Part shown: positions 1-13,163 of the stretch, piece after piece
How the letters are laid out: the number at the start of each line of letters is the position of its first letter
How positions within the stretch are numbered: position 1 is the stretch's first letter
IMG/VR virus record: IMGVR_UViG_3300045988_075523
Span: 1-13,163 of that record
DNA length: 13,163 bases
Source: a virus
Direction: 5' to 3' (one strand)
Program-made: the position numbers and the translations under genes
The notes under the pieces: model-generated
The model's database searches: none
Told to the model about the DNA's origin: nothing
The model's input: only the letters and a program-made list of their open reading frames with translations

Positions 1-11
1 GCGATACTCCC

Positions 12-113
12 GTCCGCCGTACACGGACACTTTTCCCCAAATGTCCGCCGTACACGGACACTCTGGCTGATTGTGCGTCCGTCACGGACAGATTGTACGC
101 CGTATACGGACAC
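12..113. repeat. Reiterated GTCCG..CGGAC units inside the ITR (4 copies); candidate origin or terminal-protein-complex binding sites
   Basis: The 20-mer gtccgccgtacacggacact is identical at 12-31 and 43-62 (31-bp period). Diverged copies are gtccgtcacggacag (77-91) and gtacgccgtatacggacac (95-113). Each carries short inverted arms. The set is mirrored in the right ITR. Confidence 0.8.
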
Positions 114-121
114 GGGATTGC

Positions 122-136
122 GTTCAATTATTGAAC
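122..136. promoter_or_regulatory. 15-bp palindrome copy 1 (GTTCAATTATTGAAC)
   Basis: Exact 15-mer at the inner edge of the left ITR, 13 nt upstream of the -35 of the left early promoter. Confidence 0.8.
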
Positions 137-149
137 GATAAAAGAAATA

Positions 150-178
150 TGGACACTTGCGCGCTATGGGTGTATAAT
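150..178 (+). promoter_or_regulatory. Left early sigma-A-type promoter
   Basis: TGGACA (150-155), 17-nt spacer, TATAAT (173-178). TG abuts the -10 (ggTGTATAAT). An SD and ATG at 211 follow. Confidence 0.7.
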
Positions 179-210
179 AGAGAATATAAATTAGAAAGTG
201 AGGTTTTACC

Positions 211-513
211 ATGAACAATGCTAAGTTTTTAGTCACTAATTTTACAGAGCGCTTACGCGGTCGATTAGATAGCGCTTTCATCAAGGACAATGTTATAGTT
301 AAATATAACGACTTCATGCAGTCTATTGATATAATGCTTTATCGCGTTGAGGGCAAAGTCGTTTTTAGGTATGATTGCCCCGTTAAAGATATTGTGTATA
401 ATGATAGCGGAAGAGTTAGTGATTTATTAGAGCGCTTAACCTGCTACTGTATTAATGACTATAAAGAATTATTAGCTTGTGAAGCAATTAGGGGGAGGGT
501 GAAAGAATGTTAA
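211..513 (+). CDS. Hypothetical early protein (100 aa)
   Basis: ATG preceded by GTGAGG SD at 7-nt spacing. First gene after the left early promoter. Its stop overlaps the next start (507). No motif recognised. Confidence 0.7.
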   Translation: MNNAKFLVTNFTERLRGRLDSAFIKDNVIVKYNDFMQSIDIMLYRVEGKVVFRYDCPVKDIVYNDSGRVSDLLERLTCYCINDYKELLACEAIRGRVKEC

Positions 514-1112
514 GCATAAATGAAATCACGGCCTTGCGCCGCGCCGCTTCCAAGGGTGACGCGGAAGCTTATAAAACCTTACTGGCAGAAAATGCGCGCC
601 TTGCCAAGCGCGCTAATACCCGTATGGTTGCGCTTGAAAAGGCGGGGCTTGCTTACTATGCCTACGAGCGCGCGGCGGGTTATCTTGCTTCCGAATACGG
701 CGCTAACCGCTTTACCACAAGCAAAAAGAAGCTCGCAGACCCTTACGACCTTGCACAAAACATATTGGAAGAACGGACTTTTTTGCGCGCGGAAACGTCA
801 ACAATATCGGGACAAAAGCGCGTTCGTGCGGCACGTATGCAGGCTTTTGCAAATATTGGCGTTTCTCTTCCGCAGGGCAGAGAGGACGATTTTTTAAGGT
901 TTCTCGGCTCTGACACCGTGCAAGCGGCATTAAGTGCCGTTGGGCGTAAAACTGCTATATCGGGGGAATTGGTGGAGAAACTGGCGGGCGCGTATGACAG
1001 CGCCGCGGAAAAAGCAGGCGTTAAACGCTATATAGTCAATCTATTAAATAAGTTTGCGAGTGGTGATATAGCGTATAATGAAGTAACCGACTATTTGGAA
1101 AGGAAATCATAA
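507..1112 (+). CDS. Putative terminal (priming) protein (201 aa)
   Basis: Strong GGGGGAGGG SD. Lies directly upstream of the protein-primed DNA polymerase and is translationally coupled to it (TAATG overlap at 1110-1114), as in phi29 and Cp-1. The segment KRANTRMVALEKAG loosely recalls phi29 p3 NRANMRYQFEKNAYG (from memory). The CDS is confident; the function is inferred from position. Confidence 0.5.
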   Translation: MLSINEITALRRAASKGDAEAYKTLLAENARLAKRANTRMVALEKAGLAYYAYERAAGYLASEYGANRFTTSKKKLADPYDLAQNILEERTFLRAETSTISGQKRVRAARMQAFANIGVSLPQGREDDFLRFLGSDTVQAALSAVGRKTAISGELVEKLAGAYDSAAEKAGVKRYIVNLLNKFASGDIAYNEVTDYLERKS

Positions 1113-3196
1113 TGGAACAGATTTACATAAACACGCAAGCGGGAAAGCGCTTAGAAACTGTATACAATATCAACGATTTTCCATACAGTTTTACAAACTA
1201 TGATTTTGAGATTGTCCGCAAAGCGCGGAAAGGGTCTTACTACAACATTGACGCGGCTTTCGATATTGAAGCAACTACTATTCAAGGGAAAGAAAAGCCA
1301 GTTGCATTTATGTATCAGTGGCAGTTTTGCTTACATGATAACGTGTGCTTTGGGCGCACTTGGGACGAGTTCAAAACATTTATCGAACGATTACGCAAGG
1401 GCTTTCAGTTATCTGACGGCGTGCGCTTAGTCGTTTATGTACATAACCTTGCTTATGAGTTCCAGTTTTTCCGCAACTTTTTTGAGATACAGAATATCTT
1501 TGCAACAGACCCGCGAAAAGTTATTTCCGTGCAGATAAGCGGCATAGAGTTCAGATGTTCTTACAAGCTCTCTAATATGTCTTTAGAAAAATTTTGCTCG
1601 TCCTCGAAAGGGTGTATCTATTGGAAAAAGGACGGCGGCTCGTTCAACTACGAGAAGCTGCGAACGCCCTCAACGCCGCTTACGGACATGGAAAAGGAAT
1701 ATTGCTATTGTGACGTGCGCGGATTGTGCGAGTGCATACGCGCTCTCATGGTGGAAGATACTCTTGCAACTATCCCTTTAACGTCTACTGGCTATGTTCG
1801 CAGAGAAGCACGCCACGCCGTGAAAGAAAATCCCGCTAACCATGAAAAGCTGAAGAGTTTATGTATTGATGAGAATAAATATATATTATTGCGTACCGCC
1901 CGACGCGGCGGCAATACGCACGCTTTGGCGCTATATTCCAACGAGGTGATAGAGGGCGTAAAAAGCAAAGATAAGAAGTCAAGTTATCCCGCTTCTATGC
2001 TTCTTTATGACTACCCCATGTCGCCCTTTTTGCAGATAAAGGGGCAGAAAGAGTTCTACAAAAGACTTGTCGCGGCTAATATGGCTATGTTAATAGACGT
2101 TACTTTTCGCGGCTTAGCAATTAAAAATATGCGAACAATTCCATATATCGCGCGCGCAAAATGCACCCAGTTAGAGTGCCGCGGTGCGCTGTTTGACAAT
2201 GGACGAATTATACGTGCAAGCTCCTGCCGTATGGTATGCACTGACGTGGATTTCCGTATCATAGTCGAGCAGTACACGGCGGACGATATAGAAATAAATG
2301 AGTGCTATATATCAGAATATGCCCCGTTGCCGAAAGAGTTTCGCGAGTGCGTCCGTGCTATGTTCATAGAAAAAGAGAAGCTACGGGACGGCGACCCGTA
2401 TTTATATGCAAAATTCAAAAATAAAATAAATGCTCTTTTTGGCATGATGCTGACGGATATATGCCACCCGCGTATTGAATACAATCCAAACGGACAGACA
2501 GAGGACATAGACGGGGAGAACGGTCTTTTTGAATGTGAAGTAGGAGATATAGAGGAAGAATTGCGACAGTACTATAAATCGCGCAATAGCTTTCTCGCTT
2601 ATCAGTGGGGCGTATGGGTAACAGCACACAGCCGAGCCGCATTGCAGGACGGCTTGAACGCCGTCGAGCGCGACGGCCTTTACACGGACACTGATAGCGT
2701 TAAGTATATAGGCGACCACGACGCGGACTTTGAGCGCCTTAATCATTCAATAATTAAACTTGCAGAAAAGCGCGACGTTCCCGCCTATATCGACACGCCA
2801 AAAGGACGCGTATATCTTGGAACGTGGGAGAACGACGGCGAGTATGCGCGTTTCAAAACTTGCGGTGCAAAGAAATACGCCTACGAGGACAAAAAGGGCT
2901 TGCATATCACGGTGGCAGGACTTAATAAGGAAAGCGGCGCGGAATACATCAAGCAGCAGGGCGGCATTGACGCGTTTAACATTGGCACTGTATTTCCCGA
3001 AAAGTGGGCGAAAAGAACCGTATCATATTTCAACGACGAGAAAAAGCCCTATATTTTGACCGTAACCAACGAGCGCGGGGAACGGGAAAAGATATTGACG
3101 GGAAGCAATATAGCGATTGTACCCACGACCTATACTCTTGGTATCACAGAAGAATATGCAGACTTGATAGATTACGCGCGGGCATTTCGTGACTGA
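1112..3196 (+). CDS. Protein-primed family-B DNA polymerase (694 aa)
   Basis: Exo I FDIEAT. Exo II HNLAYEFQF. Exo III YCYCDVRGL. Motif A DKKSSYPASM (DxxSLYPS-like). Motif B KNKINALFGMM (Kx3NSxYG-like). Motif C YTDTDS. KxY motif GAKKYAY. Size and ITR context fit phi29 gp2-type enzymes. Confidence 0.93.
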   Translation: MEQIYINTQAGKRLETVYNINDFPYSFTNYDFEIVRKARKGSYYNIDAAFDIEATTIQGKEKPVAFMYQWQFCLHDNVCFGRTWDEFKTFIERLRKGFQLSDGVRLVVYVHNLAYEFQFFRNFFEIQNIFATDPRKVISVQISGIEFRCSYKLSNMSLEKFCSSSKGCIYWKKDGGSFNYEKLRTPSTPLTDMEKEYCYCDVRGLCECIRALMVEDTLATIPLTSTGYVRREARHAVKENPANHEKLKSLCIDENKYILLRTARRGGNTHALALYSNEVIEGVKSKDKKSSYPASMLLYDYPMSPFLQIKGQKEFYKRLVAANMAMLIDVTFRGLAIKNMRTIPYIARAKCTQLECRGALFDNGRIIRASSCRMVCTDVDFRIIVEQYTADDIEINECYISEYAPLPKEFRECVRAMFIEKEKLRDGDPYLYAKFKNKINALFGMMLTDICHPRIEYNPNGQTEDIDGENGLFECEVGDIEEELRQYYKSRNSFLAYQWGVWVTAHSRAALQDGLNAVERDGLYTDTDSVKYIGDHDADFERLNHSIIKLAEKRDVPAYIDTPKGRVYLGTWENDGEYARFKTCGAKKYAYEDKKGLHITVAGLNKESGAEYIKQQGGIDAFNIGTVFPEKWAKRTVSYFNDEKKPYILTVTNERGEREKILTGSNIAIVPTTYTLGITEEYADLIDYARAFRD

Positions 3197-3227
3197 AAAA
3201 TTTTTTGAAAAAATTCAAAAAAATGTG
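3197..3227 (+). promoter_or_regulatory. A/T-tract (UP-element-like) region with TTTTGAA-AAAA-TTCAAAA inverted arms
   Basis: aaaaattttttgaaaaaattcaaaaaaa lies immediately upstream of the -35 at 3228. The role is inferred. Confidence 0.35.
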
Positions 3228-3256
3228 TTGACTTTTACCATTAAAAGGTGTATTCT
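3228..3256 (+). promoter_or_regulatory. Second early sigma-A-type promoter
   Basis: TTGACT (3228-3233), 17-nt spacer, TATTCT (3251-3256), with the same ggTGTAT context as the two end promoters. Confidence 0.65.
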
Positions 3257-3318
3257 ATAAGAGAAGTAAGGAACAGCACTTCATACAATGCAACTTTAAG
3301 AAAGAGAGGACTAAGACA

Positions 3319-3948
3319 ATGAGTAAAGAAATCACAACTACTAAGTTAACCTTAACGACCGAACAGCGCGAAAGCGCTATTAAGAGAATACAGAAAGGAC
3401 TTGCAGGCGTTGAGCGCGGCTATATCAATATAGCCGCTGACGTGGCAAAACTGGCAGACGCCGCCGCTTATACCGAAGTAGGTTATAAAAACATTTATGA
3501 CATGTGCGACGTTCTTTTCGGCATGAGCCGCGGCACTGTTTCCAATTTGCGCTCGATTGTAAAACGCTTCTTTGACAGCAACTATAAGATGCTTCCCGAA
3601 TATAAGGACTTCTCTGTTACCGCCTTGCTTGCTATGAAAGACCTTACAGACGAAGAAATACAGTTACTCGAGCTCACACCCGAAATGAGCAATAAAGAGT
3701 TGCGCGAGATTATCGCAAGTTTGAACGCCGAGAGCGCACCTGCTATTGAGGACAGCGAAGCAGAGAGCGGAACAGACAGCGAAGCAGAGAGCGAAGCAGA
3801 CAGCGAAGAAGCCGCACCCGACAGAGAGCCGAAGCGCTTGCAGTTATTTTGGAACTCCGAAACTGATGCCGACGGAAATAAGCTGATTAAGGCAATGCAG
3901 GAAGCAAAAGCAATGAACTATGACTTTGTAGAGGTCACGGTATTATAA
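3319..3948 (+). CDS. Putative DNA-binding protein: ParB/KorB-like HTH core with acidic low-complexity C-terminal region (209 aa)
   Basis: GAGAGGA SD 8 nt upstream and its own promoter. GMSRGTVSNLRSIVKRF ... FSVTALLAMKDL ... ELREII resembles the ParB/Spo0J HTH region (GKSRPHIANHLRLL ... LSMGHGRTLLGL ... from memory). No GERRxRA N-terminal CTPase motif. DSEAES repeats at aa 145-165. Confidence 0.45.
   Translation: MSKEITTTKLTLTTEQRESAIKRIQKGLAGVERGYINIAADVAKLADAAAYTEVGYKNIYDMCDVLFGMSRGTVSNLRSIVKRFFDSNYKMLPEYKDFSVTALLAMKDLTDEEIQLLELTPEMSNKELREIIASLNAESAPAIEDSEAESGTDSEAESEADSEEAAPDREPKRLQLFWNSETDADGNKLIKAMQEAKAMNYDFVEVTVL
3751..3813 (+). repeat. 24-bp tandem repeat (about 2.6 units) encoding DSEAESGT/DSEAESEA/DSEEAAPD
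   Basis: gacagcgaagcagagagcg is identical at 3751-3769 and 3775-3793. A partial third unit starts at 3799. Confidence 0.85.
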
Positions 3949-3953
3949 AAAAT

Positions 3954-4014
3954 AAGCGGCGCGCGGGCGTTCAATAATTGAACGCGCCGCAAGCGTCAAG
4001 CAAGCGCCGCTTGC
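3954..4014 (+). other. GC-clamped nested or alternative hairpin cluster between the early and late modules
   Basis: aagcggcgc (3954-3962) can pair either with cgcgccgc (3983-3990), enclosing palindrome copy 2, or with gcgccgctt (4004-4012). A separate 6-bp hairpin is gcaagc-gcc-gcttgc (4000-4014). No U-tract follows. Confidence 0.5.
3969..3983. promoter_or_regulatory. 15-bp palindrome copy 2 (GTTCAATAATTGAAC)
   Basis: Exact 15-mer at the apex of the GC-clamped hairpin, 81 nt upstream of the ATG at 4065. Confidence 0.8.
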
Positions 4015-4017
4015 CAG

Positions 4018-4033
4018 TGTTTCACGTGAAACA
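4018..4033. promoter_or_regulatory. parS: Perfect chromosomal-type parS (ParB/Spo0J site)
   Basis: TGTTTCACGTGAAACA is the fully palindromic form of the consensus TGTTNCACGTGAAACA. It lies 31 nt upstream of the ATG at 4065. Confidence 0.6.
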
Positions 4034-4064
4034 TTGAGTAAACAAAACAAAGAGAGGTAGTAAC

Positions 4065-4391
4065 ATGAAAAACATTAACAACGCAATCAACTTCACAAAA
4101 AAGGACGTTTTCAACGCAAACAACGGCAAGGCAATTAAAGACCTTGTAGGCGAAAAGCTAACCGTTACTGGTATTGCTTTTGGCACTGACGTGATGCAGG
4201 AAACGGGCGAAGAACGGGAAATGGTCGCAATCAAGACCGACAAGGGTATTGTCACAAGTGTGTCAGATACCGTAAAGAAATCACTTCTTGACCTTGCACC
4301 TATCATTGAAGAAGACGGTAAAGCAACCGTCACACCCGAAGTGCGCACAAGTGCAAAAGGGCGTGATTTTATCGTTCTTATCCTCGAATAA
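4065..4391 (+). CDS. phi29 p5-like single-stranded DNA-binding protein (108 aa)
   Basis: AGAGAGG SD. FNANNG...EEREMVAIKTDKGIVTSVSDTVKKSLLDL...SAKGRDFIVLIL parallels phi29 p5 FNAQTG...[30 protein letters not shown]...SSKGNVFFSLQL (recalled sequence; needs HHpred). Confidence 0.55.
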   Translation: MKNINNAINFTKKDVFNANNGKAIKDLVGEKLTVTGIAFGTDVMQETGEEREMVAIKTDKGIVTSVSDTVKKSLLDLAPIIEEDGKATVTPEVRTSAKGRDFIVLILE

Positions 4392-5431
4392 TGGCGGGGG
4401 AGAAAAAACCTTTTTTCTTTGATGTCCGCGGGCGTAGCGTTCAACCGTTCCAATTTTTTATCGGCGGGCGCGGGATAGGTAAAACCTATTCAGCGCTTGA
4501 CGCCGTGCGAGAGGGCAGTTTTAAGGACGCGGACGGGTCAACTTTCAAGATAGATAAAGTTATGTTTTTGCGCCGTTCCGAAACCGACATAACAAAAGCG
4601 GCAGAAAGCAACCCGTTCAAGAAGCTAAACAGCGACAAGGGCGACGCGATACAATGTGACTTTGTAAAGCGCTTGGGCTTTGGGCATATATGGCGCGACA
4701 ACGGAGAAGAACGGCAGGAGATAGGTTACACGGCGGCGCTTTCCACTTTTGCAGGCGTCCGCGGTACGGACTTTTCAGACGTCAATCTGATAATCTTTGA
4801 TGAGTTTATTCCCGAAAAGACTGCACGTCCTATCAAGGCAGAGGGGGAAGCAATGCTTCACTTGATAGAGACTATTAACCGCAACCGAGAACTTGTAGGA
4901 GTGCCGCCCGTGCGGGTGCTTTTTCTCGCAAACAGTATTACGCTTAAAAGTCCGATACTGTTTACATTAAACCTTGTGCAGGTAGTTGCTAATATGATAG
5001 GCAAGGGGCAACACAAATACACGGACAAGAGGCGTTGTCTTTATATCGAAGTAGTGGATAAAGACAGCATAGGCGTAAGCGGTGCAAAGTCGGAAACAGC
5101 GCTCTACAAACTGGCACGTAATACAGACTTTGAAAGGCAGGCGCTTGGAAATGAGTTTACAGGCGACAGCTTGCACCTTGTCCGAAAGGTAAACCTTTCA
5201 GAATATAAACCCTTTCTTGTTTTTGGCGGGTGTACGATTTATACACACAAAAGCAATGGTTTATGGTATGCCGCTATGCGGTTAGACACCGCGCCGTTAC
5301 ATTTCCAAGAATATGAAAACGAAAAGTTTCGGATGTTTTTCGGTGCGCGTTTTCGCTTAATTCTTAGCGGCGGCATACTGATTTTTGACAATATCAATAC
5401 AAAAATGTATTTAGAAACGGCCTTATTATAA
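4391..5431 (+). CDS. DNA encapsidation ATPase, phi29 gp16-like (346 aa)
   Basis: Walker A FIGGRGIGKTYS (phi29 VIGARGIGKSYA). Walker B LIIFDEFIPEK (TIVFDEFIREK). INRNRE (FRNRER). LANSITLKSPILFTLNLV (LSNAVSVVNPYFLFFNLV). GNEFTGDS (DNQFIGDS). TAATG coupling to the upstream SSB gene. Confidence 0.9.
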   Translation: MAGEKKPFFFDVRGRSVQPFQFFIGGRGIGKTYSALDAVREGSFKDADGSTFKIDKVMFLRRSETDITKAAESNPFKKLNSDKGDAIQCDFVKRLGFGHIWRDNGEERQEIGYTAALSTFAGVRGTDFSDVNLIIFDEFIPEKTARPIKAEGEAMLHLIETINRNRELVGVPPVRVLFLANSITLKSPILFTLNLVQVVANMIGKGQHKYTDKRRCLYIEVVDKDSIGVSGAKSETALYKLARNTDFERQALGNEFTGDSLHLVRKVNLSEYKPFLVFGGCTIYTHKSNGLWYAAMRLDTAPLHFQEYENEKFRMFFGARFRLILSGGILIFDNINTKMYLETALL

Positions 5432-5514
5432 GGGCGGTGACTACTGCAAAAAGTAGGCGCGCAGGGCTGACCGCGGAAGCGGGGCGCGTGACTTAGCCAG
5501 TCTAACCGCTCACC
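5432..5514 (+). ncRNA. Candidate structured RNA (pRNA-like or 3'-UTR element)
   Basis: Hand fold. Closing stem 5432-5438/5505-5511 (7 bp, one G-U that works only on the + strand). Hairpins: CTACT-gcaaaa-AGTAG (5441-5456), CGCGC..CCGC-GGAA-GCGG..GCGCG (5458-5488) and GACT-uagcc-AGUC (5490-5502). Internal-loop GGCUG (5465-5469) is complementary to loop UAGCC (5494-5498). GC-rich relative to its flanks. Confidence 0.3.
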
Positions 5515-5530
5515 TTTTAGCAATGTAATT

Positions 5531-5553
5531 ATGTTTCACGTGAAACATTTTTT
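5531..5553 (+). terminator. Possible intrinsic terminator formed by the parS palindrome plus a T6 tract
   Basis: ATGTTTC-ACGT-GAAACAT stem-loop followed by tttttt (5548-5553). The stem is AT-rich, so termination is probably partial. Confidence 0.4.
5532..5547. promoter_or_regulatory. parS: Perfect chromosomal-type parS (ParB/Spo0J site), second copy
   Basis: TGTTTCACGTGAAACA, extended to the 18-bp palindrome ATGTTTCACGTGAAACAT (5531-5548). It lies 8 nt from palindrome copy 3. Confidence 0.6.
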
Positions 5554-5555
5554 GG

Positions 5556-5570
5556 GTTCAATAATTGAAC
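5556..5570. promoter_or_regulatory. 15-bp palindrome copy 3 (GTTCAATAATTGAAC)
   Basis: Exact 15-mer, 18 nt upstream of the ATG at 5589 and immediately 5' of the SD. Confidence 0.8.
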
Positions 5571-5588
5571 AGAAAGCGAGGTTGTAAC

Positions 5589-5846
5589 ATGGCAGACGAA
5601 CAGAACACAGAGAATCAGGAAGAACAGAACAGCGGCCAGGAGCAGAACGACACCGCCGCAGAAATGGCGGCACTGAAAGAGCTGTTAGAAGACACAAACA
5701 AAAGCATAGCGTCACTTAAAAAAGACAACGAAGAATTAAAGAAGCTAAATTTTAAGTTAGCAATGCAGGCAGAGCGCTCGGAAGTACAGCAAAAGAGCGT
5801 AGAGGACTGCTTGCATGAGTGCTTTATGCCTACTATGAAAAAGTAG
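5589..5846 (+). CDS. Putative scaffolding protein (85 aa, acidic N-terminus, coiled coil)
   Basis: ATG with GCGAGG SD, preferred over the TTG at 5565 that lies inside the palindrome. Small, helical and Glu/Lys-rich. It directly precedes the capsid gene, like phi29 gp7. Confidence 0.6.
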   Translation: MADEQNTENQEEQNSGQEQNDTAAEMAALKELLEDTNKSIASLKKDNEELKKLNFKLAMQAERSEVQQKSVEDCLHECFMPTMKK

Positions 5847-5863
5847 GGGAAAGGAAGAAAAAA

Positions 5864-6997
5864 ATGCAAACTAATCAGATTTACGGGCTTATTAACAGCC
5901 TTGCACAGCAGAGTATGGGAGAAAGCGCTATCACTGTTACAGATACAGCGTCGCTTGTATCTCTCGGCAATGCAGTCTTATCCAGTAACACAAACACAGA
6001 CGCGTTTACGAATGTCCTTGTGCAGAGAATTGCGCGGACTATCGTATCATATCGTGCCTATAGCAATCAGTTAGGCAACCTAGCAAAAAGCAATATTGAG
6101 TGGGGAGCTATCGTGCAGAAGTTGAAAGTGGCAATGCCGAAAGCGACAGAGGACGAAACCTACAACCTTGTAGACGGTCAAAGCGTTGATATGTTTAAGG
6201 TATCGAAGCCGACGACAAAGCAGAAATTCTTTGTAAAGCGTACGCCTTACAACTTCTTTGTAACTTTTCAGCGCGTAGCAATTCGCGAAGCATTTACAAG
6301 CGTTGACGCTTTCGGGGCATGGGTTTCCGCGGTATATGGAGAAGTGCAGAATAAGTTGGAGCTTTCAAGCGAGAACGAGGGGCGCGCCGCAATGGCTAAC
6401 ATGGCGGGGCAGGTTTACAATGCCGCAAAGCCCGCGCAGGTGGTGAAGTTAATTACACTTTATAAAGCAGAAACGGGAAAGACCGTTACCCGTGCCAACT
6501 ACAAAAGCGACTCCGATTTTATGCGCTTTTGCATGCGCAGGTGGAAAGAGGACAGCAAAAACATGCGTTCTATGTCAACTTCCTACAACGCAGAGGGCGA
6601 AGAAAGACACACGCCCGAAGAATTGCAGAAGTTTGCTTGTCTTAACTCTTTCATGGTCGCAATGGAAACTAATGTTTACTATTCGGCGTTCCATGACGAA
6701 TACTTAAAGAAAGTGGTTAACTTAGAGATACCATATTGGCAGGCAGAGCAGACAAGGGACGCTATCTCTGTTAAGATTGAGGACGGAACAGAAGAAAGCG
6801 GCACAAAAGAAGTGCAGATTAACGGGCTTGTTGCTATGATGTTTGATACTGACGCGCTCGGCACGTTCAAAGAAGAAGTGGAAACATTGAACACGCCTAT
6901 TAACGCGGCGGCAAGGTATTGGAATACATATTGGCATGCCGAAAAGTTATGGTTTAACGACTTGTCTGAGAACTGTATTATTTACACCCTTGAATAA
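5864..6997 (+). CDS. Major capsid protein, phi29 gp8-like (377 aa)
   Basis: ATG at 5864 after GGGGAAAGGAAG. FTNVLVQRIA and RYWNTYWHAE parallel phi29 gp8 FITSLVDRIG and LYWNYYYHVW (recalled). The position after the scaffold gene fits. Confidence 0.8.
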   Translation: MQTNQIYGLINSLAQQSMGESAITVTDTASLVSLGNAVLSSNTNTDAFTNVLVQRIARTIVSYRAYSNQLGNLAKSNIEWGAIVQKLKVAMPKATEDETYNLVDGQSVDMFKVSKPTTKQKFFVKRTPYNFFVTFQRVAIREAFTSVDAFGAWVSAVYGEVQNKLELSSENEGRAAMANMAGQVYNAAKPAQVVKLITLYKAETGKTVTRANYKSDSDFMRFCMRRWKEDSKNMRSMSTSYNAEGEERHTPEELQKFACLNSFMVAMETNVYYSAFHDEYLKKVVNLEIPYWQAEQTRDAISVKIEDGTEESGTKEVQINGLVAMMFDTDALGTFKEEVETLNTPINAAARYWNTYWHAEKLWFNDLSENCIIYTLE

Positions 6998-7013
6998 TGC
7001 TTTCCCAAAGCGC

Positions 7014-7021
7014 TTGAAACA
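7014..7021. promoter_or_regulatory. parS half-site-like TTGAAACA
   Basis: Matches 7 of 8 bases of the right parS half GTGAAACA. It lies 6 nt upstream of palindrome copy 4, the same order as at 5532/5556. Weak on its own. Confidence 0.25.
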
Positions 7022-7027
7022 TTAACA

Positions 7028-7042
7028 GTTCAATAATTGAAC
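7028..7042. promoter_or_regulatory. 15-bp palindrome copy 4 (GTTCAATAATTGAAC)
   Basis: Exact 15-mer, 15 nt upstream of the ATG at 7058. Confidence 0.8.
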
Positions 7043-7057
7043 GGAAAGGCGGTTGCA

Positions 7058-8449
7058 ATGGTTGATATAACCTTTTACACGTTTGAAAAAAGAAGAAACA
7101 GTACAAAGCAACCGCCCGCAGATGCGGGAACGGTTGTGAAGTGCGACTTCAAAAGCCAAGTGCAGGTAGATGCGCCAATTTTTATGATTGAATGGGAGAG
7201 TGTGCCACAGTGGAATTATTGCAAAATGTTCAATAATTTTTACTACATCACCGATATTACAATAGTACGCGATAAGTTGTACTTGGTGCGGTGTGTTTTG
7301 GACGAACTGGCGACTGCTAAAACTGACATTGGAAACACGGAAGCGTTTATTCTGTATTCAGCGAGTAAATACACAAAACTCGCGCAGGACAACCGTTTAT
7401 GTATTCTTCCATATGGGGACTGGAGCGAGCGAAAAATCACTTTTTATCCGCCGTTATCTTTGATTGGTACTTTCGTATTGTCGGCAGTGGGTAAGGGAGA
7501 GAAAGCATATAACTTTACCACTGGCATGTGCCGCTCTTACTTCATGGACTATACGCAGATGCAGGCATTTGTAAACAACTTTACTTCTACCGAAGTATGG
7601 ACAACGTTAAAGCAGTATTTTACCAATCCCGTAGACGCAATAGCTGATATGTACTGGCTACCCGTTCCAGTCGATACGCTTACAGACACAATCGTTACAA
7701 CGGTTAAGTTAGGAGAGTATGACACGGGAGTAAATGCTAAGTGCTTAAAAAATCCGTTAATGACGTCAAGAGCAATAGGAAAAAATTTGACTATTCCTTG
7801 GAAGTATGACGATTTTCGCAGATGTTCCGAATGGTCGCGACTGCTTATGTTTCACCCGCTTATAGGGTTGACAGAGTTAAACGCAACGGAGTGGATTTTA
7901 GAGGATAGCATAAATTGCGACACGTATATTGATTTTATCAGCGGCGCAGTAACAGTGGAGTTAAAAAGCGACATAGGAAGCGACGCGGGGCGCGTGAAAC
8001 ATCAAATTTTAAGCGGAAATTGTCGTGTTAATCTCCCTTACGGCAGAACAGACAGCCGTATAGGACAACTTATAGGCTCTCTCGGAAATATTGGCAATGC
8101 GCAACTATCCATTGCGACGGGCAACGCGACGGGAGCTGTTGGCAACCTTGCAGGCGCTCTTACACAGTTTGCAAAGCCGATTGGAAGCAGTGTAAACGGG
8201 TCTTTTAGTGGCTCATATATACCCGTCATAGCTGATACAAATATCCATATGTATGTATACAGCTATGAGGGCACGACAGAGCCCGAAGCAATAGCGACTA
8301 TCATGGGACGCCCATTTTTTCAAGTCGATAAGATAGGCAATCATAGCGGATTTATACAGACGCAAGACGCAAGTGTGAGCGCTTCCTTTGACGCGCCAAT
8401 TATTGACCGTATTAACGCGGCACTGAATGGGGGTATATTCTATGAGTAA
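7058..8449 (+). CDS. Tail knob / distal tube protein, phi29 gp9-like (463 aa)
   Basis: ATG at 7058 with GGAAAGG SD. N-terminal FYYITDITIVRDKLYLVRCVLDELATAKTDI parallels gp9 WFYAFVTELEF..VHFEIDVLQTW. A Gly/Ala-rich loop (GSLGNIGNAQLSIATGNATGAVGNLAGAL) resembles the gp9 membrane-active loop. C-terminal GFIQTQDASVSASFDAPIIDRINAALNGGIFYE parallels [33 protein letters not shown] (recalled). Confidence 0.75.
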   Translation: MVDITFYTFEKRRNSTKQPPADAGTVVKCDFKSQVQVDAPIFMIEWESVPQWNYCKMFNNFYYITDITIVRDKLYLVRCVLDELATAKTDIGNTEAFILYSASKYTKLAQDNRLCILPYGDWSERKITFYPPLSLIGTFVLSAVGKGEKAYNFTTGMCRSYFMDYTQMQAFVNNFTSTEVWTTLKQYFTNPVDAIADMYWLPVPVDTLTDTIVTTVKLGEYDTGVNAKCLKNPLMTSRAIGKNLTIPWKYDDFRRCSEWSRLLMFHPLIGLTELNATEWILEDSINCDTYIDFISGAVTVELKSDIGSDAGRVKHQILSGNCRVNLPYGRTDSRIGQLIGSLGNIGNAQLSIATGNATGAVGNLAGALTQFAKPIGSSVNGSFSGSYIPVIADTNIHMYVYSYEGTTEPEAIATIMGRPFFQVDKIGNHSGFIQTQDASVSASFDAPIIDRINAALNGGIFYE

Positions 8450-9404
8450 AAAAGACAAAAGCCGCTCTTGGTGGCAGGCAATCAAAGAAGCGTGCGGCGT
8501 AAGGCCTACTGATGTGAACGGGCAGGACACCTTGCGGACACAGTTCTATTTTTCAGAGCTGTTGGAGCTTGTGAAAGGGCGCTTCAAGATTGACTGCCCC
8601 GACGAATGGGACAAAGATTTCATTCTTAACCAATTAATTTTAGCAGGCTTCTTTGGTGTGACTGATACACCGCTTGGCGTCGTTCCCTGCATATGCGCGC
8701 CGAAAGGTCTTAATATTTTTCAGCGCCCAAATAGTTTTACAATCAGCGGTGCGGAACTTGTAAGCGCTATCGCGGGAAGTGACTTAGAGAGAACGCTCGG
8801 CGTTGACGGGGCACTTGTATATCTACGGAGTAGCGGATATTCTTTTCAAACACTCGTGCCGCTCTTGCAAGTATACGCGGAGAAGTTGGCAACGTGTGAC
8901 GCGTCCATAGATGTTTCCTTAATAAACAGCCGTGTTGCTTATGTATTCGAGGTGGCAGACGGGAAGCAGGCAGAGGACGCCAAAAAGTTATATGGGAAGA
9001 TTTCAAGCGGTGAGCCCGCGGTATTTATGCGCTCTAACACTAATCCTGCCGTTGCACTCTCCACAGATAGTGGCTTCAACTTCCACATAAACAATGTGAA
9101 AAATGCCTTTATTGCGGGAGAAGTGCAGGACGTAAAGCGGACGATTTACAACGAATTTTTGACACGCATAGGACTTAATAACGCCAACACAGACAAGAGA
9201 GAACGATTGAATAGCGACGAAGTGAACGCGAATAATGACGAGATAAAAGCGGCGGTAAGCTATTGGAAGAAAAATCTTGAGAAATGCTGTAAGGAAGTAA
9301 ATAGGCTTTTTCCCGATATTACTTTTAATATCACCATTGAGGAGAGTGAAAGCGGTTCAATTATTGAACGCGGAGAGGAGAGGAGAGAAAGTGAAGTTAA
9401 TTGA
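8442..9404 (+). CDS. Portal / upper collar connector, phi29 gp10-like (320 aa)
   Basis: ATG at 8442 overlaps the upstream stop. IYNEFLTRIGLNNANTDKRERLNSDEVNANNDEI parallels gp10 [34 protein letters not shown] (recalled). Acidic C-terminal tail. Confidence 0.85.
   Translation: MSKKDKSRSWWQAIKEACGVRPTDVNGQDTLRTQFYFSELLELVKGRFKIDCPDEWDKDFILNQLILAGFFGVTDTPLGVVPCICAPKGLNIFQRPNSFTISGAELVSAIAGSDLERTLGVDGALVYLRSSGYSFQTLVPLLQVYAEKLATCDASIDVSLINSRVAYVFEVADGKQAEDAKKLYGKISSGEPAVFMRSNTNPAVALSTDSGFNFHINNVKNAFIAGEVQDVKRTIYNEFLTRIGLNNANTDKRERLNSDEVNANNDEIKAAVSYWKKNLEKCCKEVNRLFPDITFNITIEESESGSIIERGEERRESEVN
9355..9369. promoter_or_regulatory. 15-bp palindrome copy 5 (GTTCAATTATTGAAC), inside the portal 3' end
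   Basis: Exact 15-mer encoding SIIE in the portal tail, 21 nt upstream of the GTG at 9391. Confidence 0.8.
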
Positions 9405-9969
9405 CCTTTGCGAGATTTACGCGATAAACAGCGGCGCAGGAAGTAACTATAACGCAATCTTTGCGGATATAGAACTGGACAGCCGCTTGCAGATTAGCGA
9501 CTTTTGCAACCTGCTGTTTCAGCGCTACGGCAACGCTGAGCCCGCTTACAACACTACCAACGTGTTTAAGCTCTTTTCAGATGCTTGGTTTAAGAGAAAC
9601 GCCGACACGATACAACGTATACTTGACGCGTTGGAACTGGATTACAATCCTATTGAAAACTACGACAGACATGAAAAAATCACAAGAGCGCAGGACACGG
9701 GCGGGACGGTTACTGGAACGGGACACGCAACTGACGACTTAAGCGCGTTCAATAGCGGCGCTTATGTGAAAAACACACAAGCGGAGAACAGCAACGAAAC
9801 GAAAAGTATAGGAACGGAGAACGAAACAACAACGAATGAAACACACGGAAACATAGGTGTCACGACGTCCCAACAGATGCTAACAAGTGAGATTGAATTG
9901 CGGCGCTACAATCTGCTCGAGTGGATAGTGGATAAGTACAGCGGAGAGCTTTTGAGCTCGGTTTATTAG
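9391..9969 (+). CDS. Putative lower collar / head-tail adaptor protein (192 aa)
   Basis: GTG start 5 nt after GGAGAGGAGAGGAG, preferred over the SD-less TTG at 9337. The gene follows the portal as gp11 does in phi29. LDYNPIENYDR motif. Function is by synteny only. Confidence 0.45.
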   Translation: MKLIDLCEIYAINSGAGSNYNAIFADIELDSRLQISDFCNLLFQRYGNAEPAYNTTNVFKLFSDAWFKRNADTIQRILDALELDYNPIENYDRHEKITRAQDTGGTVTGTGHATDDLSAFNSGAYVKNTQAENSNETKSIGTENETTTNETHGNIGVTTSQQMLTSEIELRRYNLLEWIVDKYSGELLSSVY

Positions 9970-9984
9970 AGAGGAGTTGAGAAC

Positions 9985-10815
9985 ATGGCATACGGGGCTT
10001 TTGAGTTTCCAAACGCGTCTTTTTATGACAGCGACTTACGGGAACTATTGGCAATGTATAAAAAGTTAGTATCCGAATATGACAGCATTTTATCAACAGT
10101 CGAAGCATTAAACAAAAAAGTTAATGATTTATACAACTATGTTGATGCGGAGATTGCGGAAGCGGTAAAAGCCGCACTCGCGGAAGTCAATGCTAAGATT
10201 GTAGCTATCAATGAAAAGATAGCAACGATTAACGGTATTCTTACCGCACATGAAGAAAAGATAAACAACTTAAAGCAGTACACCGACACGCGCTTTACCG
10301 AGGAAAGAAACATCACAGATAGCACGATTGAGCAGACACGGAAAGAGATTGAAGCGGATATACGAAAGTTAACCGTTGAATTTTCCGCGGACTTGTTGAA
10401 GTTGTGGGAGTATGTGCAGGACTTATCTTTTACTCTCCCGCCTATTTATAATCCCGTAACGGGGAGATATGAAGCGATACCAAAAGCGGTAGATGACATA
10501 TGGAACGCCGTGCGCGTTCATGCTTTGACGGTTGCGCGGTATAGCGCGGACGCGTTGACGGTAGACGAATATAAGGCGCTCATGCTTACGGCAACAGAGT
10601 ACGCAGTAAAGGGACGTTCAATTATTGAACTGCCCGAAGCGCTCAACCGTTTGGCAGGTAACTGGACAACGGTAAATAATGCAATAGCGAGCGCGGGCCA
10701 AGTGGGTGCAGTAAACAGTTTGAGCGCCGCGGAGTATGCCGCCTTGAACTTAACCGCAGACGCGTACAGCGCGGAAAAGTTATCAGTTTCACAATATGAT
10801 TTTAACGGCGTATAA
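9985..10815 (+). CDS. Putative tail fibre / appendage protein with coiled coil and LTxxEY decapeptide repeats (276 aa)
   Basis: GAGAGGAG SD. Heptad-like helical region at aa 25-135. Six 10-aa units L(T/S)xx(E/A/Q)Yxxxx at aa 181-210 and 246-275. Sits in the phi29 gp12 position. Confidence 0.45.
   Translation: MAYGAFEFPNASFYDSDLRELLAMYKKLVSEYDSILSTVEALNKKVNDLYNYVDAEIAEAVKAALAEVNAKIVAINEKIATINGILTAHEEKINNLKQYTDTRFTEERNITDSTIEQTRKEIEADIRKLTVEFSADLLKLWEYVQDLSFTLPPIYNPVTGRYEAIPKAVDDIWNAVRVHALTVARYSADALTVDEYKALMLTATEYAVKGRSIIELPEALNRLAGNWTTVNNAIASAGQVGAVNSLSAAEYAALNLTADAYSAEKLSVSQYDFNGV
10616..10630. promoter_or_regulatory. 15-bp palindrome copy 6 (GTTCAATTATTGAAC), internal to a CDS
   Basis: Exact 15-mer encoding SIIE in the same frame as copy 5. 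No start codon or SD lies downstream. Confidence 0.75.
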
Positions 10816-10842
10816 GCCGTAAAAGAAAGGAGATAAACATAT

Positions 10843-11256
10843 ATGTTTACTAACAAAACTAAAAACTACAACTTGCCGCAGTATCTCGGCACGGATAAGG
10901 CAGAATGGCTTGACAACAACGCCGCTTTTGCTACGATTGATACAGCACTGAAAGAAGCGGCACTTAACGCAGAAAGTGCGGGAAGCAATGCCACCAACGC
11001 CGCGACAGTGGCGGCGCAGGCACAGAGCGCCGCAGACAACGCGCAGGCTACTGCTACAAGAGCGCAGTCTACCGCAGACACAAACGCAAGCAATATAGCG
11101 GGTCTTAATACACGCGTGGCGCAGGTGGAAACGGGAGTTGCAAACAATAGTAGAGCGCTCGGCGGTTTTTCCTTTGTGGCATTAACACAGACACAATATG
11201 ATGCGCTTGAAACAAAAGACCCGAATACGGTCTACTTAGTAAAGGCAGGTGTATAA
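10843..11256 (+). CDS. Putative fibre protein (137 aa; Ala/Gln-rich helical shaft)
   Basis: AAAGGAG SD. N-terminal YNLPQYLGTDKAEWLDNNAAFATID and C-terminal LTQTQYDALETKDPNTVYLV are typical of Gram-positive phage fibre proteins. It shares the LTxxQYDAL motif with the upstream gene. Confidence 0.45.
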   Translation: MFTNKTKNYNLPQYLGTDKAEWLDNNAAFATIDTALKEAALNAESAGSNATNAATVAAQAQSAADNAQATATRAQSTADTNASNIAGLNTRVAQVETGVANNSRALGGFSFVALTQTQYDALETKDPNTVYLVKAGV

Positions 11257-11257
11257 C

Positions 11258-11677
11258 ATGGGAGTTAAAGTTGGAGCAAGTGAAGTGGGCGTATACTTAG
11301 GCGCGGAGAAGTTAGCAGGACTTGACGGCGTAGTGACATTAGCACCGTTTCAGCATAACAAGAGAACTAACACTTACAGTTATTTATACTTTGATTGCGG
11401 AGAGGGTGCTACTTTGCATATATCGGGCGTTACTCTTGGTAGCGGCTCAGAGTTACATGTAAGAGTAGGTGACGACTTGACCTTTGACGACGCTAATGAA
11501 AACACTTTAACGGGCTTAGCTCTTGGAAATATCGCAAGCGGTGAAGAAAAAGATTTCGCTGTGTCGGGGCATAGATATGCTTCCATTCAGTATATCAACA
11601 CAAGCGGAACGGCACAGAGATATGGTGCAAGCGGAAGTTGCACTATTAGCGGAGCGCAGGCAGTAAAGGCGCAGTAA
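11258..11677 (+). CDS. Hypothetical beta-rich protein, possible receptor-binding or fibre-tip module (139 aa)
   Basis: ATG 1 nt after the upstream stop. Gly/Ser/Thr/Val-rich composition. Lies between the fibre genes and the lysis cassette. Function is a guess. Confidence 0.3.
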   Translation: MGVKVGASEVGVYLGAEKLAGLDGVVTLAPFQHNKRTNTYSYLYFDCGEGATLHISGVTLGSGSELHVRVGDDLTFDDANENTLTGLALGNIASGEEKDFAVSGHRYASIQYINTSGTAQRYGASGSCTISGAQAVKAQ

Positions 11678-11686
11678 GGAGTAGTC

Positions 11687-11917
11687 ATGAATGATATTTT
11701 AACTATGGTATCTACCGTGGGTTTCCCCACGGTAGCATGTATCGGTATTGCGTGGTTTTGCAAGTATACAAACGACAACTACCGCGAGGACTTAAAGGAA
11801 GCAAACATCGAACACAAAGCGGAAATGAATAAAATAACGGAAGCCTTAAACAATAACACGATAGCACTTACAAAGTTGTGCGAGCGTATGGAGAAAGGAG
11901 AAGACAAAGATGCTTGA
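11687..11917 (+). CDS. Holin, BhlA/UviB-like (76 aa)
   Basis: TAAGGAG SD. One N-terminal TM segment (VSTVGFPTVACIGIAWF) followed by a charged helical tail (YREDLKEANIEHKAEMNKITEAL), like BhlA. Overlaps the endolysin start. Confidence 0.7.
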   Translation: MNDILTMVSTVGFPTVACIGIAWFCKYTNDNYREDLKEANIEHKAEMNKITEALNNNTIALTKLCERMEKGEDKDA

Positions 11918-12614
11918 GGGGTACGACATTTCACACCATCAACGAAACTCGACAGTTGCAGAATTGCACGAAGATGCGGATTTCTTTATATGCAAGGCGA
12001 CAGAAGGCGCGACTTACAAAGACCCTAAGTTTTTAACACATATCAACGAAGCGCTTTCCTATGGAAAGTTAATAGGAGCTTATCACTTTGCACGCCCCGA
12101 AAAACGACCGACAACAGAGGGCGCGAAAGTTGAAGCCGCTAATTTTGTTAGAACGGTAAGCCCTTTTATTGGTAAATGCTTGTTCGCGCTTGACTGGGAA
12201 ATGACTGCATGGAACTATGACTTGTCATGGGCGCGTGCGTGGCTCGATGAGGTTTACCGACTTACGGGAGTAAGACCCGTGATGTATTGTCACATCAATA
12301 AAACAAACAGATGCGAGGAGATTGTAAGCGGCAACTATGGCTTGTGGGTAGTGTATTGGGGCAAGAATAGCGGCGCGGAGATTGAGCTTCCTAAAGAAAA
12401 AATTGCGACTTGGCGGACTTGGGCGCTTTGGCAGTGGACGAGTAAACCGCTTGACCGTGATAAATTTAACGGAAATGTTGAGCAGTGGAAGAAGTATTGC
12501 GCGAGCGACTTGAAAGAGAATGACGAGGGAGCAGAAGAACACTTTTGCGGATGCGAGTTTTGCAAGGACTTTGAGAAGTTCGCAGAGGAACACGGGTACA
12601 AGAAAACAGAATAA
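11910..12614 (+). CDS. Endolysin, GH25 muramidase (234 aa) with a short Cys-containing C-terminal tail
   Basis: GYDISHHQ, FFICKATEGATYKDPKF, GAYHFARP, LFALDWE and LDRDKFNG match GH25 (Cpl-1 / LysA-type) signatures. No SH3, LysM or choline-binding repeat recognised. The tail contains CGCEFC. Confidence 0.88.
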   Translation: MLEGYDISHHQRNSTVAELHEDADFFICKATEGATYKDPKFLTHINEALSYGKLIGAYHFARPEKRPTTEGAKVEAANFVRTVSPFIGKCLFALDWEMTAWNYDLSWARAWLDEVYRLTGVRPVMYCHINKTNRCEEIVSGNYGLWVVYWGKNSGAEIELPKEKIATWRTWALWQWTSKPLDRDKFNGNVEQWKKYCASDLKENDEGAEEHFCGCEFCKDFEKFAEEHGYKKTE

Positions 12615-12629
12615 TGTTTCACTTGAACA
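12615..12629. promoter_or_regulatory. Degenerate parS-like site (TGTTTCAC-TTGAACA)
   Basis: The left half is perfect. The right half has one substitution and one deleted A. It also forms a small hairpin (aatgtt/aacatt) just after the lysin stop. Confidence 0.3.
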
Positions 12630-12641
12630 TTAAGACAAAAT

Positions 12642-12676
12642 AAAGACCTACACGGTAAAGTGTAGGTCTTTCTTTT
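12642..12676. terminator. Bidirectional rho-independent terminator
   Basis: 12-bp stem aaagacctacac / gtgtaggtcttt with loop ggtaaa. cTTTT lies on the + side and an A-run upstream (T-run on the - strand). It sits between the convergent lysin gene and the right-end gene. Confidence 0.85.
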
Positions 12677-12685
12677 AGGTTATAA

Positions 12686-12931
12686 TTAAATTCTAAACAT
12701 ATCAACGTGGCTATTGCAGAAAGTTGCTGTTTCTCCGTTCTCTAATGTTATAATTAAATACTCATTGTATTCGTCCCTGCTATTCTCGTCTGTATCAAGT
12801 CCTATCTCTGTTGCTATGTCTCCCGTTACTACCTCATAACCTCTTATTCTGTTATACTTAACCTCTGCTACTTCCTCGCTACTTACTTCATACTTAACTC
12901 CGTTGTAAATCTTAACTTTAACATTTATCAT
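12686..12931 (-). CDS. Hypothetical acidic right-end early protein (81 aa)
   Basis: The only convincing minus-strand gene. AAAGGAAAGG SD, its own promoter and a terminator. 16 Asp/Glu versus 8 Lys/Arg. Confidence 0.7.
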   Translation of the reverse strand: MINVKVKIYNGVKYEVSSEEVAEVKYNRIRGYEVVTGDIATEIGLDTDENSRDEYNEYLIITLENGETATFCNSHVDMFRI

Positions 12932-12966
12932 ATTATTTACCTTTCCTTTCTTTATCTGATATAGTA

Positions 12967-12995
12967 AGTATACACCTTGACGAAGAATAATGCAA
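12967..12995 (-). promoter_or_regulatory. Right early sigma-A-type promoter (leftward)
   Basis: On the minus strand: TTGCAT (12995-12990), 17-nt spacer, TATACT (12972-12967), in the aggTGTATACT context. Confidence 0.65.
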
Positions 12996-13001
12996 GCAAA
13001 A

Positions 13002-13016
13002 GTTCAATAATTGAAC
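13002..13016. promoter_or_regulatory. 15-bp palindrome copy 7 (GTTCAATAATTGAAC)
   Basis: Exact 15-mer just outside the right ITR, 6 nt upstream of the -35 of the right promoter. Centre-to-centre distance to copy 8 is 26 bp. Confidence 0.8.
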
Positions 13017-13025
13017 TACGAATAT

Positions 13026-13163
13026 TCGTTCAATAATTGAACGCAATCCCGTGTCCGTATACGGCGTACAATCTGTCCGTGACGGACGCACAATCAGCCA
13101 GAGTGTCCGTGTACGGCGGACATTTGGGGAAAAGTGTCCGTGTACGGCGGACGGGAGTATCGC
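13026..13163. repeat. Right inverted terminal repeat (138 bp)
   Basis: Exact reverse complement of 1-138. Confidence 0.97.
13028..13042. promoter_or_regulatory. 15-bp palindrome copy 8 (ITR mirror of copy 1)
   Basis: Exact 15-mer at the inner edge of the right ITR. Confidence 0.8.

Follow-up and report, generated by a model that had tools for sequence, protein, structure and literature searches.

The stretch of DNA analyzed here, referred to as the window, comprises 13,163 bp and corresponds to positions 1 to 13,163 of the IMG/VR virus record IMGVR_UViG_3300045988_075523. The 138 bases at its beginning and the 138 bases at its end are exact reverse complements of each other and form inverted terminal repeats; hence, the window represents a complete linear genome of the phi29 type. 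A palindrome of 15 bp, GTTCAAT-W-ATTGAAC (pattern GTTCAATWATTGAAC), is dispersed over this genome, and an earlier inspection of the letters alone (the original prediction) had interpreted it as a genome-wide set of protein-binding operators. The dispersed palindrome array is real, conserved, and undescribed; the motif was not found in the searchable literature. The same genome encodes a helix-turn-helix protein of 209 aa, which is our candidate for the binder. The palindromes, the adjacent promoters, and the candidate gene are located as follows (palindromes and terminal repeats without strand):

1-138: left inverted terminal repeat, reverse complement of 13026-13163
122-136: palindrome at the inner edge of the left terminal repeat, ending 13 nt upstream of the left early -35
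150-178, + strand: left early promoter TGGACA-17-TATAAT, -35 at 150-155 and -10 at 173-178, best in the window (11/12)
2745-2759: decayed palindrome ATTCAATAATTAAAC within the DNA polymerase gene
3228-3256, + strand: conserved sigma-70-type promoter TTGACT-17-TATTCT with an A/T-rich tract upstream, in front of the helix-turn-helix gene
3319-3948, + strand: candidate binder of 209 aa with helix-turn-helix residues ~14-137, a disordered acidic linker (138-167), and an alpha/beta C-terminal domain (173-208)
3969-3983: palindrome at the tip of a GC-clamped hairpin, starting 20 nt past the helix-turn-helix stop codon
5556-5570: palindrome 8 nt past a parS-like hairpin with T-run, 18 nt before the scaffold start at 5589
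7028-7042: palindrome 15 nt before the start at 7058 of a 463-aa tail gene, preceded by a hairpin variant
9355-9369: palindrome inside the end of the upper-collar open reading frame (ORF), 21 nt before the lower-collar start at 9391
10616-10630: palindrome inside a 276-aa gene
12967-12995, - strand: right-end leftward promoter TTGCAT-17-TATACT, -35 at + strand 12990-12995 and -10 at + strand 12967-12972, identified by eye and below the scan threshold
13002-13016: palindrome upstream of the leftward right-end promoter, 6 nt from its -35
13026-13163: right inverted terminal repeat
13028-13042: palindrome at the inner edge of the right terminal repeat, mirroring the copy at 122 and located 32 nt upstream of the right-end -35

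A pattern search returned eight exact matches in the 13,163-bp window, with 0 expected and no copy of GTTCAATWATTGAAC in 200 dinucleotide-preserving shuffles; the eight predicted copies were thus confirmed at their positions. When up to three mismatches were allowed, the decayed copy at 2745 was the single extra site. All eight copies are exact, but those at 122 and 13028 both lie within the exact 138-bp inverted terminal repeat and represent one element, so that seven copies are independent. Scans of IMG/VR with a single motif copy gave chance single matches only, and a scan for tandem motif pairs gave none.

The distances to promoters and start codons proved correct on recheck, the left one provided that TGGACA at 150-155 is the -35, and the predicted placement at both early promoters and at gene junctions was borne out by the checked positions. 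Sorting the copies into those inside ORFs and those upstream of genes did not hold for copy 9355, which is both, lying within the upper-collar ORF and upstream of the lower-collar start. Copy 3969 ends 81 nt before the SSB start at 4065, and a promoter-like TTGGCA-18-AATAAT is found 20 nt downstream of copy 10616. The intragenic copies 2745, 9355, and 10616 are all read in one common frame, xGT TCA ATN ATT GAA C. Site centres are 1.2-2.6 kb apart and more evenly distributed than random, with P~0.001 including the polymerase site and ~0.01 excluding it, by a statistic that was picked post hoc.

Conservation was analyzed in five near-complete genomes, L148, L152, L155, L157, and L158, which serve as close relatives. 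They originate from human gut metagenomes, including Hadza samples, and share 82-87% nucleotide identity with the window; all six genomes are 82-92% identical among themselves. Absence of the motif from equivalent positions in relatives had been named as a way to refute its significance; palindromes were found at matching positions in all five. At the seven positions shared by the six genomes, none of the 98 arm columns varied as compared to 147 of 420 flank columns (35%), and five of the seven centre columns contained A, T, or C variably. At the genome-wide variation rate, this invariance of the arms has a P-value of ~4e-16. Furthermore, third-codon positions in the arms of copies 9355 and 10616 are invariant, whereas 55-62% of those elsewhere in the two genes vary. 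Since the arms are invariant including codon third positions while the centre drifts, the selection that had been postulated for the palindrome set acts on the DNA sequence of both arms. The idea that the centre base flips with orientation had to be abandoned because one and the same position has A, T, or C in different relatives. This pattern of variation indicates that the palindrome is a site of sequence-specific double-stranded DNA recognition by a dimer and not an oriented signal or an RNA hairpin.

Single copies differ in their fate. Copy 122 is kept in all close relatives, and copy 13028 is degenerate in L155, L157, and L158. The polymerase copy at 2745 is a perfect GTTCAATCATTGAAC in L148, L155, L157, and L158 and is decayed in the window and L152; this copy is therefore dispensable. 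The L155 equivalent of copy 5556 contains a 4-bp insertion at its centre (GTTCAATAAATAATTGAAC) with both arms intact and represents a natural spacing variant.

A hidden Markov model (HMM) of the 209-aa protein identified homologues only in the window clade, L149/L150, L174, L175, and L176, and none in 28 other related phi29-like genomes. A dispersed palindrome array was present in all five lineages with the gene and in 0 of the 28 related genomes without it. A related-locus search for helix-turn-helix homologues with a narrowed alignment yielded two loci. The sister palindromes of the distant lineages are:

L149/L150 (GC content 0.34-0.36): GTTCAACGTTGAAC (GTTCAAC-GTTGAAC) near the left -35, right after the helix-turn-helix gene, before the lower-collar gene, behind the final gene, and at the right end
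L174: GTTCAAC-G-GTTGAAC, located behind the helix-turn-helix gene
L174: ATTCAAC-C-GTTGAAT, located 5' of the promoter that drives the helix-turn-helix gene
L175 (complete, with terminal repeats): eight copies of GTTCAACGTTGAAC and two of GTTCAACGCGTTGAAC, in the terminal repeats, upstream of a promoter, in 5' leaders by ribosome-binding sites, and intragenic
L176 (GC content 0.28): five GTACAATATTGTAC-like copies (GTACAAT-ATTGTAC), among them one beside each early promoter

The outer hexamer GTTCAA is constant in four of the five lineages, L176 having GTACAA, and the lineages differ in the inner base and in the spacing, which is 0, 1, or 2 bp. Half-sites are arranged as 7-0-7 or 7-1-7, and L175 contains both 7-0-7 and 7-2-7. 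In most lineages a palindrome flanks the helix-turn-helix gene: a copy closely follows the gene in the window clade, L149, and L174, and in L174 and L175 a copy precedes its promoter. The hairpin-tip arrangement of copy 3969 recurs in L149 and L174. Furthermore, the recognition helix GM(S/A)RGTVSNLR is unchanged between clades having the outer GTTCAA. The original prediction had listed the protein encoded at 3319-3948 among possible binders, and the comparative evidence points to the same protein.

Other repeats and boxes were considered and rejected. Repeats in L002 and L016, examined as analogous arrays, are tandem coding repeats. The Fur-family box matches in its 7-1-7 architecture and its AATNATT core; Fur, PerR, and Zur boxes were rejected because the outer GTTC stands against TGAT, TTAT, and TCGT and the sister lineages lack the AAT-N-ATT core. 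Resemblances to LexA boxes, CcpA cre sites, the Spo0A box, and ECF or sigma-H promoters were ruled out on sequence.

The 209-aa protein belongs to a family of at least 1402 sequence clusters at E<=1e-3. A search of PHROGs returned only phrog_15077, the function of which is unknown, and ten remote homologues contained no Pfam domain. AlphaFold models reached a predicted local distance difference test (pLDDT) value of 75 for the full protein and 82 for the helix-turn-helix domain alone. Foldseek matches of the domain model were dominated by the DNA-binding domains of Spo0J, ParB, Noc, and VirB (TM 0.5-0.64, E >=0.8), and the full model matched 4umk with a probability of 0.91 and an E-value of 0.45. 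Structure matches in BFVD were uncharacterised gut podovirus proteins and a DUF3102 protein (E 8e-3). Caulobacter ParB contacts parS through residues G170, K171, S172, R173, and N178 (PMC7383237). The spacing of G68-M69-S70-R71-x4-N76 in the phage protein equals that of these contacts, as judged by eye and not statistically; nine diverse homologues all have G68, R71, and N76, and their position 70 is occupied by S or A. An N-terminal ParB/Srx CTP-binding domain is absent, the helical domain beginning at about residue 14 without room for one.

Canonical parS (TGTTTCACGTGAAACA) is located at 4018-4033 and 5532-5547 of the window, with a degenerate copy at 12615-12632, and elsewhere at L149:5189, L174:1534, L175:5696 and 8475, and L176:5151 and 8787. 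It occurs in five of five lineages with the helix-turn-helix gene versus one of 28 others, in most cases right after a stop codon and in most cases no further than 35 nt from a GTTCAA palindrome. The window palindrome differs from the 16-bp parS palindrome TGTTTCAC-GTGAAACA in being 7-1-7 with the half-site GTTCAAT; the phage half-site in general is cGTTCAA(C/T) as compared to tGTTTCAC in parS. The sister form cGTTCAAC-GTTGAACg has five of seven core half-site positions (1, 2, 3, 6, and 7) in common with the GTTTCAC of parS. From these sequence comparisons, the palindromes are best seen as diverged parS sites. In the close relatives, parS alternates positionally with a longer hairpin, TGTTTCCCAAAGCGCTAAAGCGCTTGAAACA, which has a T-run behind it and the same outer arms (window ~7000-7022, L148:4008, L157:7229, L158:7098). 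A hairpin or terminator function at these spots may therefore be no less important than ParB binding. Five host parS (Spo0J) sites are present in phi29, where they help to trap the phage genome in spores (PMC2731898), and the arrangement of parS near the palindromes recalls these sites.

With a probability of about 0.5, we propose that the palindromes form a dispersed operator array for a dimer of the phage-encoded 209-aa protein, which would thus act as a global DNA-binding protein; a genome-wide set of protein-binding operators, as originally envisaged, remains the best reading after comparison. The protein, with its putative DNA-binding domain of the ParB/Noc type, would be made from its own conserved promoter at 3228-3256, and its dimer would bind the palindrome GTTCAATAATTGAAC, filling every copy including the intragenic ones on a genome that is transcribed nearly all from one strand. 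At the genome ends, bound protein would be located just upstream of the early promoters and would influence the use of these promoters and, possibly, the function of the origins. At the junctions, it would lie between a T-run hairpin and the next ribosome-binding site and would form a roadblock or insulator against read-through transcription. Since the junction sites begin 2-8 nt past hairpin and T-run, RNA polymerase would run into bound protein and stall at the T-run. The flexible linker between the modeled domains would explain the tolerance to different half-site spacings. A structural or tethering role would be equally compatible with the even site spacing.

The proposed logic is closest to that of two known systems. 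KorB-OB of the IncP plasmid RK2 exerts global control through many copies of the palindrome TTTAGC-S-GCTAAA, which are bound by a ParB-type DNA-binding domain (PMC11790492). The phage array resembles it in that one palindrome with a free centre base is repeated over a small replicon. Some OB copies are located beside promoters, and others far from any. Unlike the phage protein, KorB possesses a ParB N-terminal domain, works as a sliding clamp dependent on CTP, and has the partners KorA, TrbA, and IncC; unlike RK2, the phage replicon is lytic, protein-primed, and linear. Stoperators of cluster A mycobacteriophages, which are bound by L5 gp71 or the TipsytheTRex repressor, comprise many genome-wide sites, at which elongation is stopped, besides an operator at the early promoter (PMC9283540). 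Likewise, the phage array combines many identical short sites across the genome with sites at the early promoters. Stoperators lie largely in short intergenic gaps. They are asymmetric, oriented with transcription, and bound by monomeric immunity repressors of temperate phages, in contrast to the symmetric phage sites with their unoriented centre. phi29 itself is of the same phage type, and its sites near both early promoter regions and at the ends control the transcription switch and replication. Its proteins p4 and p6 are, however, unrelated; p6 is not sequence-specific, the p4 sites are few and clustered, and phi29 has no known dispersed identical palindrome. An early-to-late switch in the manner of p4 or p6 is a possible role of the array.

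Several results weigh against the proposed operator function of the 209-aa protein. The protein was assigned to no Pfam or NCBIfam family, including ParBc, a profile search of PDB sequences gave no match at E<=10, and the Foldseek E-values are all non-significant (>=0.45). The co-occurrence of gene and array is confounded by phylogeny, as the gene-bearing lineages may constitute a single clade whose hosts are related. Protein and site do not covary in a simple manner, the recognition helix of L175 being altered (RATVGNLE) although GTTCAAC is kept. Invariant TGTTTCACGTGAAACA also tracks the gene-bearing lineages, so that the protein could bind the parS-like motif instead, and the phage 15-mer is identical to the operator of a cellular regulator family. 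Finally, our results do not constrain the outcome of binding, which may be repression, roadblock, tethering, or origin activation.

A more far-reaching version, which we put forward tentatively as a minor possibility, is that the protein would be a CTPase-less 'mini-ParB' of lytic phi29-like gut phages with its own parS-derived site, as Noc evolved NBS, and would form a scaffold on 8-10 copies. Such a scaffold would occupy roughly evenly spaced sites beside canonical host parS on a protein-primed linear chromosome; it would provide insulation between transcription units, mark the two origins, and either interact with host ParB loaded at the neighbouring parS or block it. Similar to ParB-parS and the paralogous protein-site pair Noc-NBS, the phage system combines a palindrome of 14-16 bp, a possibly similar fold, and a G-x-S-R-x4-N signature. 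NBS differs from parS at two positions (PMC7383237), and the phage half-site GTTCAAC differs from the GTTTCAC of parS at two as well. In contrast to ParB and Noc, the phage protein lacks a CTPase domain and hence would not spread or slide by the known mechanism; furthermore, the centre spacing of the phage sites varies by 0-2 bp, and the protein has no detectable sequence homology to them.

Binding of the palindromes by a host winged-helix regulator of the MarR_EPS (TIGR04176) type, or by another host factor, we consider unlikely, albeit the strongest of the competing explanations. The phage would thereby tie its promoters and transcription units to the regulatory state of the host, e.g., capsule or exopolysaccharide expression. 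The palindrome had been described as not being a known host regulator box. This statement has to be qualified because the identical 15-mer, GTTCAATNATTGAAC, precedes TIGR04176 genes as tandem pairs in many cellular genomes. Exact pairs were found in SAR11, Methylophilaceae, Desulfobacterales, Auribacterota, and others, within a set of genome loci (L159-L173) and metagenome contigs (L177-L296); they adjoin a TIGR04176 MarR_EPS gene at 12 of 15 genome loci and 103 of 120 metagenome loci. The tandem copies often lie 1-6 nt before the TIGR04176 start codon, and the commonest gap within a pair is 8-9 bp. In the two loci examined for it (L167 and L162), a gene for an UpxY/RfaH-like antiterminator follows the TIGR04176 gene. 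Judging from this arrangement, GTTCAATNATTGAAC is apparently the auto-operator of TIGR04176 MarR_EPS regulators, for which no operator was found in the searchable literature. Further support for a host factor comes from the canonical parS carried by the phage, the host Spo0J sites of phi29 being a precedent (PMC2731898).

The two settings differ, however. The cellular form consists of tandem pairs before the regulator's own gene, no Firmicute or gut organism was among the 15 genome matches, and most of the metagenome contigs bear marine names; the phage, in contrast, originates from human gut samples. A MarR_EPS homologue is absent from the phage proteins, and a profile comparison of four of them showed no similarity. 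The sister phages have GTTCAAC with 0, 1, or 2 bp spacing, which argues that the exact match results from drift, specific to this lineage, away from a parS-like ancestral form. A rigid MarR dimer would not be expected to accommodate the different spacings that occur within the L175 genome. The identity of the phage and cellular 15-mers is probably convergent.

It is rather improbable that the 209-aa protein binds the parS-like sites and a different phage protein, e.g., one of the small early proteins specific to the lineage (211-513 or 12931-12686), binds the GTTCAA palindromes. The parS motif is as invariant as the recognition helix and is restricted to gene-bearing lineages, the ParB signature for contacting parS is kept including the R173-equivalent arginine, and both the palindromes and the small early proteins vary by lineage. 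On the other hand, the small proteins have neither a DNA-binding signature nor homology across lineages, yet the palindromes form one family. The palindrome neighbours the helix-turn-helix gene more consistently than parS does, and the close relatives swap parS for the long hairpin at some positions.

Still less probable is a late promoter element, at which host RNA polymerase would be redirected by a phage factor, with AATAAT in the centre serving as a -10-like box and transcripts starting just before each ribosome-binding site. Three copies do lie between a terminator-like T-run hairpin and a Shine-Dalgarno sequence with no sigma-70 promoter in between, and the leaders are of similar length (15-21 nt, and ~17 nt in L175). 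But a perfect palindrome is directionless, the centre base can be A, T, or C, and the central CG of the sister lineages destroys the -10 resemblance; copies inside genes and upstream of strong sigma-70 promoters do not fit, and no sigma-like protein was detected among the phage proteins.

The original prediction had offered, as its alternative, an RNA 5' stem-loop which controls processing or translation; such a stem-loop in the leaders, with effects on processing, stability, or translation, we regard as very improbable. The internal copies are transcribed directly 5' of ribosome-binding sites, the would-be loop at the centre is free to vary, and the L155 copy with its 4-nt insertion keeps the stem. 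However, the end copies are located upstream of promoters and thus outside the adjacent transcripts, and the arms are invariant in sequence without any compensatory variation. Copy 3969 forms a strong GC-clamped structure (-47 kcal/mol, z = -6), whereas the other four of the five internal copies have a stem of 6 bp with a folding energy that cannot be told from that of shuffled sequence (insignificant z), and no Rfam family matches. That the palindromes are boundary sequences for module exchange among co-infecting relatives, or mini-palindrome remnants, without any binding function is hardly credible: copies do lie at module junctions, and insertions, deletions, and hairpin swaps occur beside them in relatives, but purifying selection on the arms including synonymous sites and positions conserved in distant lineages argue for a function, 15 bp are short for homologous recombination, and no recombinase is encoded.

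The remaining genome is that of a phi29-type phage. Profile searches of the window proteins identified the following genes:

1112-3196, + strand: protein-primed family B DNA polymerase
4065-4391, + strand: phi29-type SSB
4391-5431, + strand: gp16 packaging ATPase
5864-6997, + strand: major head protein
8427-9404, + strand: upper collar
9391-9969, + strand: lower collar
11687-12614, + strand: holin and GH25 endolysin

The small right-end gene 12931-12686 is the sole gene on the - strand; all remaining genes are on the + strand. No RNA polymerase gene was evident in the profile-searched set, in agreement with the original prediction, and no lysogeny genes were found in the phage. A promoter scan of the window detected a near-consensus sigma-70 promoter at 150-178 only, and one strong terminator is present, which is bidirectional (12642-12671). 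With the whole window as query, megablast found nothing in the phage collection; an exact-sequence look-up of two window proteins gave no record, and a whole-window Rfam search at E<=1 detected no family and, in particular, no pRNA.

A GTCCG...CGGAC inverted repeat is present four times within the terminal repeat, at 10-113 (mirrored at 13051-13154), e.g., GTCCGCCGTACACGGAC, and the ends of L149 and L176 bear this motif too. It is a possible origin-recognition element for protein-primed replication. An ORF of 59-61 aa is located between the polymerase and helix-turn-helix genes in L152 (3428-3607), L155 (3395-3574), L157 (3324-3503), and L158 (3209-3394); it is absent from L148 and from the window, where the counterpart region is 3197-3318. 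The promoter upstream of this region (TTGAC-17-TATNNT with an A/T tract) is kept in the window and all relatives. Directly past the packaging ATPase gene, ~90 nt of GC-rich non-coding sequence (5432-5530) are nearly invariant across the six genomes, and their conservation is still recognisable in L149, L150, and L175, where some pairs covary; the region ends at the parS-like hairpin and T-run. It is a candidate for a packaging-RNA-like non-coding RNA that matches no Rfam family. The endolysins of the window (11910-12614) and L149 (11411-12016) are lone catalytic domains, GH25 and Amidase_3, respectively, with no recognisable cell-wall-binding domain in either. They may leave room for a diderm host, e.g., Negativicutes, although the promoters and ribosome-binding sites are Firmicute-like.

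Next to nothing has been known of how phi29-like phages outside Bacillus control their genes, and the pairing of a set of sites with a candidate protein is now concrete for an abundant group of human-gut and rumen phages. As a by-product, a likely auto-operator is obtained for the TIGR04176 MarR_EPS regulators. Should the ParB-like version be true, the phage protein would provide a natural case of ParB-type DNA recognition without a CTP switch and a second diversification of parS specificity after Noc. Assignment of a site to a family of at least 1402 clusters would furthermore assist the annotation of many phage genomes.

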